Translations under genes and position numbers: made by a program
Notes under the pieces: generated by a model
Told to the model about the DNA's origin: nothing
Databases searched by the model: none
What the model saw: only the letters and a program-made list of their open reading frames with translations
Source of the DNA: an uncultured archaeon
Lineage (GTDB): Archaea > Asgardarchaeota > Lokiarchaeia > Sigyniarchaeales > SOKP01
Assembly: GCA_964388035.1 (NCBI GenBank)
Contig: CAYLZE010000024.1
Location: forward strand, 1-52,939
Length of the DNA: 52,939 bases
Direction of reading: 5' to 3'
Shown: positions 4,912 through 19,760 of the stretch, piece after piece
How the letters are laid out: the number at the start of each line of letters is the position of its first letter
How positions within the stretch are numbered: the stretch's first letter is position 1

Positions 4912-5424
4912 ATTCGAGCATTACCAGCATGCAGAACTTGTGTGGCGACCGATTTTCTCTGTACGAGCTGTCAAGACAAATTCGATGAAGGAGAACTGAC
5001 TGAATTTGAGTTGGATTTAGCCAAAATGCTCGTGGAGCTAGAAGAAACGGATCCGCGCTTTACTTTTCTGAAGGATGTGGCATTTTATAAGGCTATAGAT
5101 TTTGAGGATGTCGTGATTTTAATCATTGGAAAAGGAGATAAATTGCGCATCACGCAAGAACTCGTGGATTTAATAAAAGAAACGTATGAAATTGATAAAA
5201 TCATTTTAGTTGAAGAGAGCAAGAAACCGAGAGCCGTGGTTGAGAGTTTAATCGCGCCTGGTAAATTAATCTCCTTGAACGAGATATTTTTAGCCACGGG
5301 GGATATTGAATTTAAAGCAATCATTCGATCGGAAGATCAAGAGCATATATTATTCACTAAAGAAGAATTGGAAGAATTAGTTCTTGAATTAACGGGCAGG
5401 GTAACAAGAATAGAATTCCAATGA
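4912..5424 (+). CDS. archaeal NusA-like KH protein with N-terminal Zn-binding CxxC pair; probable ATT start
   Basis: In-frame extension IRALPACRTCVATDFLCTSCQ upstream of the track's GTG (4942); KH-like IIGKG; lies before pth2-truD. Confidence 0.7.
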   Translation: MRALPACRTCVATDFLCTSCQDKFDEGELTEFELDLAKMLVELEETDPRFTFLKDVAFYKAIDFEDVVILIIGKGDKLRITQELVDLIKETYEIDKIILVEESKKPRAVVESLIAPGKLISLNEIFLATGDIEFKAIIRSEDQEHILFTKEELEELVLELTGRVTRIEFQ

Positions 5425-5475
5425 AAGGGCACCATCAATAGAGAGTAAGTTAATCGTTTTTTACCAGTCAAGAAC

Positions 5476-5832
5476 ATGGATGAACTTAAACAGGTAATTT
5501 TAATTAGAACAGATTTAAAAATGGGCACTGGAAAAAAGGTTGCTCAAGCATGCCATGCTGCCGTGGAATCTTCAGATAGAGTGAGGATTCAAAATAAAGC
5601 AAACTGGAAGGCATGGAAGAATGCGGGGCAGAAGAAGATCGTTCTTAAAGCCAAGAGCTTGGAACAATTGCAAGATATTGTCAAAGAGCTGGAAAGGCAA
5701 AAGATTCCCCATTTTTTAGTAATGGATGCAGGCTTGACCCAATTACCTCCAGGAACAATAACCGCCCTGGGAATTGGGCCGCATCCCGCTTCTCAATTAG
5801 ATAAAATCACGGGAGATTTGAAATTACTTTAG
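5476..5832 (+). CDS. pth2: peptidyl-tRNA hydrolase Pth2
   Basis: [35 protein letters not shown]-terminal LKLL. Confidence 0.97.
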
Positions 5833-5839
5833 AAAGGAA

Positions 5840-7240
5840 ATGAACTTGTCAGAAAAGGAGTGGTTTACCCAAGCTAATCGGGATTACGAGAGAGAGGTTG
5901 AAAGAGCAGTAGGAATCAACTTTTTTAGCACATCCGAAACCAAGGAAATAGGGGGTATTTATAAAGATAATTACAAAGACTTCATCGTTAAGGAAATAAC
6001 AGAAGACGGGCAAGTCTTGGAAATAAGAGAGGATTCCAAAAATTACGCCTTTTCTCAAGATGATTTCGATAAGTATACTACCTTTAATTTGATAAAAGTG
6101 AATAAAGATACCTTCGAAGCAATTGATCTGATTTGTAGGGAACTAAACATTCATCCGGCACAAATTTCTTATTCCGGATTAAAGGATAAGACCTCAATTA
6201 GCGTACAAAAAGTATCCATAAAAGGAAATTACGTGGAACAACTGAGAACTCTGAAAATAAGAGATATTTTTATCAGGGATATCTATCCGAGTAAGAAAGG
6301 CGTGAAATTAGGAAGTCATTGGGGGAATCATTTCGTGATTACCTTGCGACAAATTGAAGACCGAATAGATCTCAGCCAAGATATTGACCATCTTTTTTAT
6401 AAATTAACGAAAGTTGGGTTTCCTAATTATTTTGGCTTGCAACGGTTTGGAACCTTCCGACCCAATTCCCATTTGATTGGACGGTATCTAATTGAAAAGA
6501 ACTATAAGCTGGCATTTGATGAGTTTGTCACTTCGATCTATCCCATGGAATCGGAATCAGCCAAGAAAGCAAGATCCTGCTTAAAAGAGACAGGAGATTA
6601 TAAAAGAGCGTTTGAAATCTTCCCTCAGAGCCTCCATTATGAAAAAAGAATGTTACAATACATGATGGATCATCCTCAAGATTATGAAGGAGCGTTCAAG
6701 GTGCTTCCCGACGATTTGATAAAACTCATTGTCAGCGCCTTTCAGTCATACATTTTCAATAAAATTCTTTCTCTAAGAGAAAAAAAAGGCATTTCGCTTT
6801 TCACGCCGGTTAAGGGAGATGTTTTCTGCATTTTAGAACAAAAAAATGGATGGGCCACTCTGGTGAAATATCTATTCGGGAGTTATTATGATGAATGGTT
6901 ATTGAAAGCCATGGAAAAAAACCGGGCTGCCATTGTCGTTCCTATTATAGGATATGATATCGATTTGAACTCGTTTCCTTTAATGAAGCAATTATTCGAG
7001 GAAGTGGTGAAGGAAGAACAGATCCGTGCTGAATTATTTTCCAAAAGCGTATTGGAAGATTTAGAATTGAAAGGTGCCTTGAGAACCATGATGGTAAAAC
7101 CCGTCGGATTGCAGATCTTAGAATTTAAAGACGATGATATTTATTCAGGGTTTAAAAAATTGAAATTTGAATTTTCTTTAAGTAAAGGAAGTTATGCCAC
7201 CATGTTATTGCGCGAATTTCCCGCCCGTGAAGGGAAGTGA
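5840..7240 (+). CDS. truD: tRNA pseudouridine(13) synthase TruD
   Basis: DFIVKEI, GLKDK, GNHF, FPNYFGLQRFG, SAFQSYIFN, KGSYATMLLRE. Confidence 0.95.
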   Translation: MNLSEKEWFTQANRDYEREVERAVGINFFSTSETKEIGGIYKDNYKDFIVKEITEDGQVLEIREDSKNYAFSQDDFDKYTTFNLIKVNKDTFEAIDLICRELNIHPAQISYSGLKDKTSISVQKVSIKGNYVEQLRTLKIRDIFIRDIYPSKKGVKLGSHWGNHFVITLRQIEDRIDLSQDIDHLFYKLTKVGFPNYFGLQRFGTFRPNSHLIGRYLIEKNYKLAFDEFVTSIYPMESESAKKARSCLKETGDYKRAFEIFPQSLHYEKRMLQYMMDHPQDYEGAFKVLPDDLIKLIVSAFQSYIFNKILSLREKKGISLFTPVKGDVFCILEQKNGWATLVKYLFGSYYDEWLLKAMEKNRAAIVVPIIGYDIDLNSFPLMKQLFEEVVKEEQIRAELFSKSVLEDLELKGALRTMMVKPVGLQILEFKDDDIYSGFKKLKFEFSLSKGSYATMLLREFPAREGK

Positions 7241-18011: not shown

Positions 18012-18509
18012 ATGGTGGATTTTAGGGATTATTATCAAGGTTTGGTTTCGCTCAGTTTAATGATTTTCATTTTTTCACTTACCTTCATGCTCGGATCCGT
18101 GTTGATGAAACCATACATTGCGCTGGAGCCCAATGACCTCACCATGATTATCATTTTATGTGCGATTAATTTTTTCTTTTGCTCCTATTATCTGATAGAA
18201 GCATCCCTTTTCAATAAAGTAATGAGATTGGAAGATAAGCAGCTCATAAGATACGGAAAGCGGATTGGCGTGATTTCTTGTTTTTATTTGCCTCATGTAG
18301 CGGCTCTAATCACGTTTGCTTTTCAACAAATCCACGGGTTAGAGAAAATGATGCTGGTACTTATCATATTAATGGAACTTCTCCTCATAGGTTTGGTTTT
18401 TAAGCAAGTTCATGATTTAGTATTTAAAGATCAGATTGAAAGAGAATATGAACTGGAAAAAAATCGAAAAAGATATGGAAAGGCGAAATTAGAGCAATTA
18501 CATGATTAA
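18012..18509 (+). CDS. hypothetical membrane protein (about 4 TM)
   Basis: Four hydrophobic segments, charged tail. Confidence 0.7.
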   Translation: MVDFRDYYQGLVSLSLMIFIFSLTFMLGSVLMKPYIALEPNDLTMIIILCAINFFFCSYYLIEASLFNKVMRLEDKQLIRYGKRIGVISCFYLPHVAALITFAFQQIHGLEKMMLVLIILMELLLIGLVFKQVHDLVFKDQIEREYELEKNRKRYGKAKLEQLHD

Positions 18510-18512
18510 GAG

Positions 18513-19760
18513 TTAAGCTTTACTCAGTTTTTCGAGCGCGGTATCTATCATCTTCAATTTAGTACTGTATTTTTCCATTAGCTCCGCAAACTTGTGTAAA
18601 TCTATTTCATTGCTTTCTTTTAAATTCTTAATCTCGTTGATAGTTCTTACGATACCCGCTTTTTTATCCAACAATTTTTCTTTTTTGCTATAGGGGATCT
18701 TTTTTTCTAATCTCTTGGTCTGAAATTTCTTGAATCTCTTGATATTTAAATCTTTAGGCACGAATTTCGTAAGATATACGGTAGATTTGGGGACGAAAGG
18801 AGCTAAATTCTCCGGAACTATTATGATGGGTTCGGGATCTTGGATTTTCTTTATTTCTTCATAATCGAGTAGAGCTTGATCCTTTTTGCCTAGAATTTCC
18901 TCCACTATTTCTAGATTATGCTTAATGCTCTCTCTTTCTTCATCGGTTAATTCCTTTAAATTGGAGACCATGTTTTCCCAAATTTCCTGGGATTTCACAA
19001 AATACCACAGGGCCTTTTGGTCCAATCTATCTACTTTATCCTTGTTAATATTGGTAATGGAGGACTCCATGGAAGCTCTTGCCTTCAACTTACATGCTTT
19101 TCCCATATCATAATGAAACTGGGCTCTTATTTGTTGTTTCTTTTTCTCATCATGTTTTTTCAAGTAAAAAAGGCGCTTGGATAATGCACTCAATCCCGCA
19201 TATAATTTTGAAGCAAAATAGATGTTTCCAACCGTTTCTTCTTTTAGGGCAGCAATACTTTGAGCAATGATTCTTGCTTCTTCCGAATTCAACTCAAGTT
19301 CTTCCGCATTTAGGAGGTATCCTTTTTCATCTTGCTGAATAGATGCTGCACTAAAGTAAGCTGCAGTCTTAAAATATTTACTCGATTCCACTACAGCTAT
19401 AATGGCATTATCCCATTCCTCTTTTGCCTCATAACTTTCAGAAAGAGAAGAATAGGCTTTTGCCATCACCCATAAAGTTCTTGCGCATTCAAAAATTAAA
19501 TCAGAAATCTCAATATCTTTTTCTAAAAAAGAATCATGGAAATGGGAGGTAATGTCCAGTTCTTTTAATAACTGGGCATGATTAGAGTTTTGATAATTAA
19601 TGTTCAAAATCATGGTATACTCCAAGATCAAATTCAGATCATCAAGGCTAAATGCCTCCTCTTCTTTCTCTAATGCTTCTTCTAGCTGTTTTATTTTGAA
19701 ATGCAAAAAGCGAATTCTTTGCATTTGCTCTTCCGTGAATACGGGGGTCTTAACAAACAT
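18513..19760 (-). CDS. putative BRO1-domain (ALIX/BROX-like) protein
   Basis: FHDSF..., FECARTLWVMAKAYSSLS, SKYFKTAAYF, IIAQ...ASKL collinear with the recalled BRO1 consensus. Confidence 0.6.
   Translation of the reverse strand: MFVKTPVFTEEQMQRIRFLHFKIKQLEEALEKEEEAFSLDDLNLILEYTMILNINYQNSNHAQLLKELDITSHFHDSFLEKDIEISDLIFECARTLWVMAKAYSSLSESYEAKEEWDNAIIAVVESSKYFKTAAYFSAASIQQDEKGYLLNAEELELNSEEARIIAQSIAALKEETVGNIYFASKLYAGLSALSKRLFYLKKHDEKKKQQIRAQFHYDMGKACKLKARASMESSITNINKDKVDRLDQKALWYFVKSQEIWENMVSNLKELTDEERESIKHNLEIVEEILGKKDQALLDYEEIKKIQDPEPIIIVPENLAPFVPKSTVYLTKFVPKDLNIKRFKKFQTKRLEKKIPYSKKEKLLDKKAGIVRTINEIKNLKESNEIDLHKFAELMEKYSTKLKMIDTALEKLSKA

Follow-up and report, generated by a model that had tools for sequence, protein, structure and literature searches.

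A divergent Bro1-like domain joined to a steadiness-box-type hairpin: a candidate ESCRT adaptor in one family of Lokiarchaeia

[quoted passage not shown] The steadiness box (SB) of ESCRT-I (PF09454), solved in Vps23 (2f66, 2caz, 2p22) and TSG101 (6vme), is an antiparallel helical hairpin of about 60 residues. Here we describe a gene for a protein of 415 amino acids in which counterparts of both modules appear to be combined. It lies in a window of 52,939 nucleotides (the whole stretch of DNA analysed; contig CAYLZE010000024.1, assembly GCA_964388035.1) from an archaeon of the lineage Asgardarchaeota, Lokiarchaeia, Sigyniarchaeales, SOKP01.

According to the available text of Makarova et al. 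(2024), orthologs of Bro1/Alix are not identifiable in Asgard archaea. The accessible parts of Eme et al. (2023; PMC10307638) give 'Bro1' only as the best domain match of sequences of about 75–155 amino acids in Hod-, Njord- and Thorarchaeia. The initial annotation of our locus had cautioned that BRO1-like proteins may already be catalogued among the eukaryotic signature proteins of Asgard archaea. The short sequences, as far as that publication presents them, are not the same family as the 415-residue protein. Structure-based surveys of Asgard proteins leave Bro1 unmentioned in the main text that is available, and the literature accessible to us contains no description of the family, which may stand in figures under a generic label.

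Steadiness-box hairpins have been described in Lokiarchaeia, namely in Znr_CC_PH_SB, Vps22-SB and BAR-SB (Makarova et al., 2024) and in a free SB protein (Hatano et al., 2022). In the multidomain proteins of this group, as the available text describes them, the hairpin is added to a different module and presumably docks into an assembly of ESCRT-I/II, which is the arrangement that we propose here. The partner domains named in the accessible parts of both publications include no Bro1-like module, although their figures may use a generic label such as 'TPR'.

The gene is present in one copy in its own genome (5.47 Mb, 211 contigs, 96.7% complete). Upstream of the ATG the open frame runs just 8 codons further; hence no N-terminal part is missing from the open reading frame (ORF). 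A species-genome collection contains 124 stretches coding for close relatives, of which we took the 80 best as orthologous loci. The gene is real and under constraint: across these loci its product retains 65–79% amino acid identity at conserved length, and the gene is as conserved (about 70% identity) as its neighbours for Prs and ThrRS. All named relatives carry the label 'hypothetical protein' and stem from metagenome-assembled genomes (MAGs) of Promethearchaeota/Lokiarchaeia.

An AlphaFold2 model was built from the family alignment; it is a predicted and not an experimental structure, with a mean predicted local distance difference test score (pLDDT) of 81 and a predicted template modelling score (pTM) of 0.67. 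Secondary structure assignment by DSSP gives helices at residues 10–31, 39–52 and 61–68, a beta-hairpin at 73–84 and eight long helices up to residue 290, after which a low-confidence segment (312–356) leads to a hairpin (359–414). Foldseek comparison with 350,542 chains of the PDB returned exclusively Bro1 domains at ranks 1–21 (E 2.6e-4 to 4e-3), including 1zb1, 3zxp, 3rau and 2oew from yeast Bro1, BROX, HD-PTP and ALIX, and below them TPR proteins of the NASP and LGN type. Rescoring of these matches by VIA-align yielded Z 15.8–18.0 at a root-mean-square deviation (rmsd) of 3.9–4.8 Å, with 260–276 of about 360 residues aligned. Residues 1–308 pair with residues ~21/33 to 331/342 of the Bro1 chains, and the first 20–30 residues of eukaryotic Bro1 domains are absent from the protein.

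A VIA-align search of 48,161 cluster representatives, independent of Foldseek, again placed all five Bro1 representatives on top (Z 17.5, 17.1, 16.9, 16.1 and 16.1). The next fold was SRP68-RBD, with Z 11.5 over 158 residues; taking both sets of scores together it reaches Z 11.5–11.9 over 158–171 residues only, leaving a gap of 4–6 units. Helical models may reach Z ~14 by chance in this method; in the predicted model, score, coverage and gap all stand above the chance level. As in eukaryotic Bro1 domains, the model combines a TPR-like helical arrangement with a small beta-sheet, the beta-hairpin precedes the long FE-containing helix, and about 265–275 residues are collinear, so that most of the domain can be superposed. 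The FTW..D strands ahead of Bro1's long FE-K helix have their equivalent in residues 73–84. The initial annotation had read the protein as an ALIX/BROX-like BRO1 domain, to be checked by structure prediction and Foldseek. Both structure searches of the predicted model support that reading, with the Bro1 fold found and not only generic TPR or solenoid matches.

The sequence connection to BRO1 is indirect. Searched with the Pfam BRO1 profile, neither the protein (at E<=10) nor the six-frame translation of the genome gave a match. The HMMER profile of the family, however, finds proteins of about 400 amino acids (P0149, P0152 and P0153, E 6e-33 to 3e-28) that are 25% identical to ours, and one of them, P0152, matches Pfam BRO1 with E 3.2e-8 and 33.3 bits (gathering cut-off 35.1), its residues 9–182 being aligned to profile positions 33–208. 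The precomputed annotation of the protein collection also assigns PF03097 to P0152. The matching stretch maps ungapped to residues 15–189 of the 415-residue protein. Since the other three distant members (P0149, P0153, P0188) have no Pfam BRO1 match, the link, as judged from sequences, rests on one intermediate and weak profile matches. Apart from the cluster that contains the protein itself, its nearest neighbours in the ESM Atlas are clusters of the eukaryotic BRO1, palC and PDCD6IP-like kinds (scores 0.82–0.85), which we regard as leads only.

Within the mapped stretch lie all six BRO1-like motifs that had been picked out by eye at the outset, and reading of the translation bears out each position: LILEYTMIL (44–52), HFHDSF (73–78), DLIFECARTLWVMAKAYSSLS (87–107), SSKYFKTAAYF (126–136), LNAEELE with IIAQSI (150–156 and 164–169) and ASKLYAGLS (183–191). 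For a profile whose N-terminal columns derive from the four distant members only (A4), the best sequence match in the PDB is the Bro1 domain of HD-PTP (E 0.14). In that alignment iPeeWedl...dlnleiarvlfllG stands opposite VPVTWTEI...DIKYEQACILYNLG (HD-PTP residues 88–151). It covers the second and third blocks (W..D and D..E.A..L...G), and the invariant E91 of our family faces a conserved Bro1 Glu. Resemblance of the motifs to BRO1 exceeds chance: HMMER aligns the motif blocks of distant members to a solved Bro1 domain, and the blocks fall within the stretch of P0152 that matches Pfam BRO1.

The order of the blocks is that of eukaryotic Bro1 (W/F..D, D..E.A..L, K.A..F, L..E..R..AQ, KL..GL). Of the collinear blocks FTW.D, FE.A..LFN, Y.Q.A.G.F, LAQAQE and AKL, all of which have a counterpart, the first two are aligned by HMMER in the distant members; agreement of the remaining ones was judged against what we take to be the Bro1 consensus.

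The protein departs from the described Bro1 proteins in what surrounds this domain. It has neither the V domain nor the proline-rich region of ALIX and Bro1, no phosphatase as in HD-PTP and no CAAX box as in BROX, its C-terminus reading ...LSKA. The V-domain profile ALIX_LYPXL_bnd has no match in the protein, whose C-terminus is a single hairpin. Lacking a V domain and a Pro-rich tail after the Bro1 domain, the protein is not an ALIX ortholog. The architecture first proposed, a Pro-rich stretch followed by a C-terminal helical hairpin instead of a V domain, is found in the model as a Pro-containing segment (306–337) and the hairpin. What sets the protein apart from eukaryotic Bro1 proteins is that its Bro1-like module bears a hairpin of the steadiness-box type; binding to ESCRT-III would be the expected common property.

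Modelled alone, the last 72 residues reached a pLDDT of 90.6, and Foldseek ranked chains of the ESCRT-I headpiece first (6vme_B/G/F/H, 2p22_B, 2f6m_C, 2caz_A, 2f66_A; E 0.34–1.4, template modelling (TM) scores 0.70–0.75). In a wide VIA-align search with residues 354–415, Vps23 chains were best (Z 9.6–9.7, rmsd 1.2–1.6 Å over 59–62 residues), with CdvA of Sulfolobus at Z 9.2. Over 67 residues, 24% identity is shared with chain 6vme_B from the human headpiece of ESCRT-I, a chain numbered in a way that fits TSG101. Among the profile searches the sole sequence signal comes from a profile of the three-member distant subfamily (A3), which gives weak matches to yeast Vps23 in its steadiness box (2f66_A, 2caz_A; E 0.6–0.9), the two having the pattern TI.EL..L...G.I....F in common. 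An antiparallel hairpin that superposes on the C-termini of Vps23 and TSG101 is therefore present in the model, and the C-terminal hairpin is probably, although not provenly, of the ESCRT-I steadiness-box type. Unlike in Vps23 and TSG101, it is joined to a Bro1-like domain and not to a UEV domain and stalk; the hairpin fold alone is not specific.

Conservation within the Bro1-like core is highest in the three helices 116–139, 152–177 and 180–200, across short, long and distant members alike. Invariant residues include F136, L150, L155, E160, R163, Q167, G189, L190 and R196. Helix 152–177 carries conserved polar residues at every third to fourth position (E153, E156, E160, R163, Q167, E174), a periodicity that, on the sequence level, looks like an exposed binding stripe. 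We propose the helices of residues 116–200 as a partner-binding face. In ALIX, the mutant I212D is a standard CHMP4-binding mutant. By approximate offsets taken from HD-PTP and from structural alignments, F182 and L186 may be the equivalents of ALIX I212 and L216.

Beyond the helices follows a near-invariant extended segment (IQDPEP..VPENLAPFVPK..L.KFVPKD), which is probably either a docking motif or the extended strap at the C-terminal end of the Bro1 domain; it presumably resembles the strap with which the Bro1 domain of ALIX ends. Residues ~334–383 (18612–18761 of the window) and the orthologs L094 and L095 give recurring weak matches to Pfam DUF5788 (E 0.009–0.05), which span the linker and the hairpin's first helix. 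Coordinates of all features are collected in Table 1.

Table 1. Features of the Bro1-like gene and its product, in positions of the window
Feature	Residues	Position	Strand	Basis
Whole ORF, 415 amino acids and stop codon	1–415	18513..19760	-	Single ATG-to-stop frame
Bro1-fold core	1–308	18837..19760	-	Superposes on solved Bro1 domains
Beta-hairpin HFHD / KDIE	73–84	19509..19544	-	DSSP; HMMER alignment to HD-PTP; residue mapping
Three helices (116–139, 152–177, 180–200)	116–200	19161..19415	-	Conservation analysis, invariant columns
Near-invariant extended segment	306–337	18750..18845	-	Low confidence in the model
Lys/Arg-rich linker	338–358	18687..18749	-	Low model confidence
Helical hairpin	359–414	18519..18686	-	Separate model, Foldseek, wide VIA-align search

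What the analysis demonstrates is the fold, a remote homology in sequence, the similarity of the hairpin, and the conservation and distribution of the gene. On this basis we hypothesize, at a probability of roughly 0.6, that the gene product is a soluble ESCRT adaptor of two modules, consisting of a divergent Bro1 domain, a basic linker and a hairpin of the Vps23/TSG101 type. In this adaptor, residues 1 to ~335 would be a highly divergent yet homologous Bro1 domain. We infer which two partners it binds and in which cellular process it acts. The conserved face 116–200 would bind an amphipathic helix at the C-terminus of an ESCRT-III subunit, by analogy with the binding of Snf7/CHMP4 by Bro1, ALIX, HD-PTP and BROX. 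The hairpin may pack against steadiness-box hairpins of ESCRT-I/II-like subunits, such as Znr_CC_PH_SB-like, Vps22-like and Vps28-like proteins. One polypeptide could in this way link early ESCRT factors to ESCRT-III as ALIX does, via a different attachment to ESCRT-I. Yeast two-hybrid assays are reported, in the available text of Hatano et al., to show interactions of Lokiarchaeota steadiness-box proteins with Vps28 and Vps22.

Candidate partners are encoded elsewhere in the genome, which agrees with the initial description of the gene as lying outside an ESCRT operon. Genes for Vps4, a Vps25-like and a Vps22-like protein occupy the end of contig C82 (L085, 7952–10957), which stops just past vps4. 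On contig C30 an ESCRT-III gene of the Vps20 class (L096, 25243–25890) adjoins the gene of a 679-residue protein that resembles Znr_CC_PH_SB and is the sole match of Pfam Vps23_core in a six-frame search of the genome; in gene order the region corresponds to the Znr_CC_PH_SB / MetE / Vps20 arrangement listed in a table for Lokiarchaeum GC14_75. The genome yielded no UEV domain, and neither Pfam Vps23_core nor UEV matched the Bro1-like ORF or revealed a canonical Vps23. A second gene of the Snf7 family (ESCRT-III) was not found in the 96.7%-complete assembly either; a tblastn candidate on contig C150 proved to be a sugar kinase-like ORF. As the C82 cluster lies at a contig end and one Snf7 gene was detected, the second ESCRT-III gene is probably located in an assembly gap.

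The ESCRT-III protein and its orthologs (L096, L097–L125) end in a conserved amphipathic helix (..KEKL..EIEKLRKELEG). ESCRT-III tails in the family that owns the Bro1-like gene carry the linker motif [DE][DE]LQYIPE[YF], and those of the sister family MESMSLYDD. This contrast is weak evidence, because it is a single phylogenetic contrast.

Several observations weigh against the adaptor hypothesis, and those on the N-terminal module are considered first. Searches of Pfam, NCBIfam and the PDB chains with the protein itself, and of the PDB with a 36-member profile of the main family, gave no relevant match. One of the four distant members reaches Pfam BRO1, and this slightly under the gathering cut-off. 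TM-scores to solved Bro1 domains are moderate (0.42–0.51), with rmsd values of about 4 Å and identities of 11–14%, and convergence is possible among helical solenoids. The protein might accordingly be a generic TPR-like alpha-solenoid that came to resemble Bro1 by convergence, with no evolutionary or functional tie to ESCRT. Weak TPR_2 and MIT matches in the core would fit such a solenoid, as would the lack of a direct profile match, the low identity and the Z values near 14 that helical models may reach by chance. We nevertheless consider it very improbable. The Z values of 16–18 extend over about 270 collinear residues, include the beta-hairpin and exceed those of every TPR protein or solenoid by 4–6 units. 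The transitive Pfam BRO1 match (E 3e-8), the HD-PTP Bro1 domain at the top for the A4 profile, the BRO1 families among the language-model neighbours and the collinear motif blocks all speak against convergence.

Further objections to the adaptor hypothesis concern the hairpin and the proposed partners. Matches of the hairpin are statistically weak (E 0.3–1.4), unrelated hairpins such as integrase coiled coils come within 1 Z unit (Z 9.0–9.4), and a search with Pfam Vps23_core (E<=10) found no match in the last 76 or 107 residues. No ESCRT gene occurs among the conserved neighbours in the 80 loci. Moreover, the terminal helix of ESCRT-III (..KLxxEIEKLRKELEG) is also conserved in the sister family that does not have the Bro1-like gene; hence the proposed Bro1 site lacks specific co-variation.

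Paralogs bear on the same question. In sister genera, many genomes encode one to three paralogs of 560–790 amino acids beside the short form, sometimes in tandem. These begin with an HHH_5 domain (E values as low as 3.5e-13), to which a Lys/Ser-rich linker and then the same Bro1-like and hairpin modules are joined. Examples are the genes at 5091–7151 and 8869–10497 of contig C26 in genome G236, and the proteins P0122–P0136. One paralog linker gives a histone-H1-like HC2 match. The genome that contains the window has the short form only and no HHH_5 paralogs, and longer fused forms were not found in the band of 1344–3835 amino acids.

These data may suggest a homolog of the Bro1 fold with a changed function: its partner would be something other than ESCRT-III, the hairpin would serve dimerisation or form a coiled coil, and the protein might be part of a scaffold linked to the nucleoid or DNA. 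Paralogs with HHH_5 and a Lys-rich, histone-H1-like linker that co-occur with the short form would be in line with such a role, and so would the lack of ESCRT synteny and the tie of the weak hairpin matches with unrelated hairpins. However, the best-conserved helices (116–200) lie, by approximate offsets, in the CHMP4-binding region of ALIX, and the top-ranked hairpins among tens of thousands of chains are those of ESCRT-I Vps23/TSG101. A DNA-binding addition in paralogs would also be compatible with recruitment of ESCRT to DNA-proximal sites. A changed function therefore appears unlikely to us, and we retain the two-module ESCRT adaptor.

A bolder and rather speculative extension of the adaptor hypothesis, which we consider unlikely as well, is an archaeal ALIX-like bridge from early ESCRT factors to ESCRT-III in one compact protein, its Bro1 domain being permanently fused to a hairpin of the ESCRT-I headpiece, with helix-hairpin-helix (HhH) paralogs tethering the bridge to DNA and thereby coupling ESCRT-III scission to the nucleoid. 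If true, such a DNA-tethered bridge would be an archaeal counterpart of chromatin-linked abscission control.

For the distribution across sampled Asgard genomes we used the A3 profile, which is free of HhH columns, at a stricter cut-off. The gene was found in 126 of the 134 sampled genomes of the GTDB family to which the window belongs (the eight genomes without a match are 64–93% complete), and in none of the 265 other Asgard genomes, which include three closed sister-family genomes in which the ESCRT-III ortholog is present. A broader distribution obtained with the A2 profile (274 of 400 genomes) was rejected, since the weak matches outside the family vanish with the HhH-free profile and the stricter cut-off; they probably come from helix-hairpin-helix columns of A2. 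Several loci bear the labels Hod-, Hermod-, Odin- or Thorarchaeota although they encode proteins 69–73% identical to the Lokiarchaeial ones. One locus (L009, DATKTW010000140.1; protein P0005, 73% identical) was deposited as 'Candidatus Nanopelagicaceae bacterium', most likely a binning or labelling error.

With regard to origin, it is conceivable, if on the whole doubtful, that the gene was acquired by one Lokiarchaeial lineage, for instance from a eukaryote, and diverged fast, in which case it would have little bearing on the ancestor of eukaryotes. The narrow distribution fits this scenario. So does the scarcity of relatives: a word-indexed search of about 5.8 billion proteins found just four distant homologs, and the HMMER search of 1.84 billion representatives with the family profile just 59 clusters, none of them eukaryotic. 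On the other side, the protein is 11–14% identical to each of the solved Bro1 domains of eukaryotes, and neither the eukaryotic Bro1 proteins of solved structure nor the examined Atlas neighbours showed a fusion with a steadiness box or HhH. A second archaeal subfamily, 25% identical and found in other Promethearchaeota MAGs, suggests some depth within the archaea.

The neighbours of the gene, which encode Prs, a hydrolase, NifU, several small membrane proteins, an ATP-grasp enzyme, a HAD hydrolase and ThrRS, have no relation to ESCRT. Their synteny is kept throughout the family, and over the 80 loci it reflects close kinship and not function. Upstream, a spacer of 217 bp is shared with the divergent ATP-grasp gene. 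On the other side, a gene on the plus strand (18012–18509) for a predicted membrane protein of 165 amino acids, with no Pfam match, converges on the Bro1-like gene with 3 bp between the stops, and it adjoins that gene in 70 of the 80 loci.

Bro1/ALIX is among the few core ESCRT accessory factors that the available text of Makarova et al. (2024) lists as missing from Asgard archaea. Should the Bro1 domain of the protein described here prove genuine, one more component of the membrane-remodelling machinery of eukaryotes would gain an archaeal relative; whether that relative predates eukaryotes depends on its origin, and its distribution in one GTDB family calls for caution in assuming the gene in their ancestor. 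The fusion to a steadiness box, which is unprecedented, suggests how ESCRT-I and ESCRT-III may have been coupled before the V domain and the proline-rich region of ALIX.

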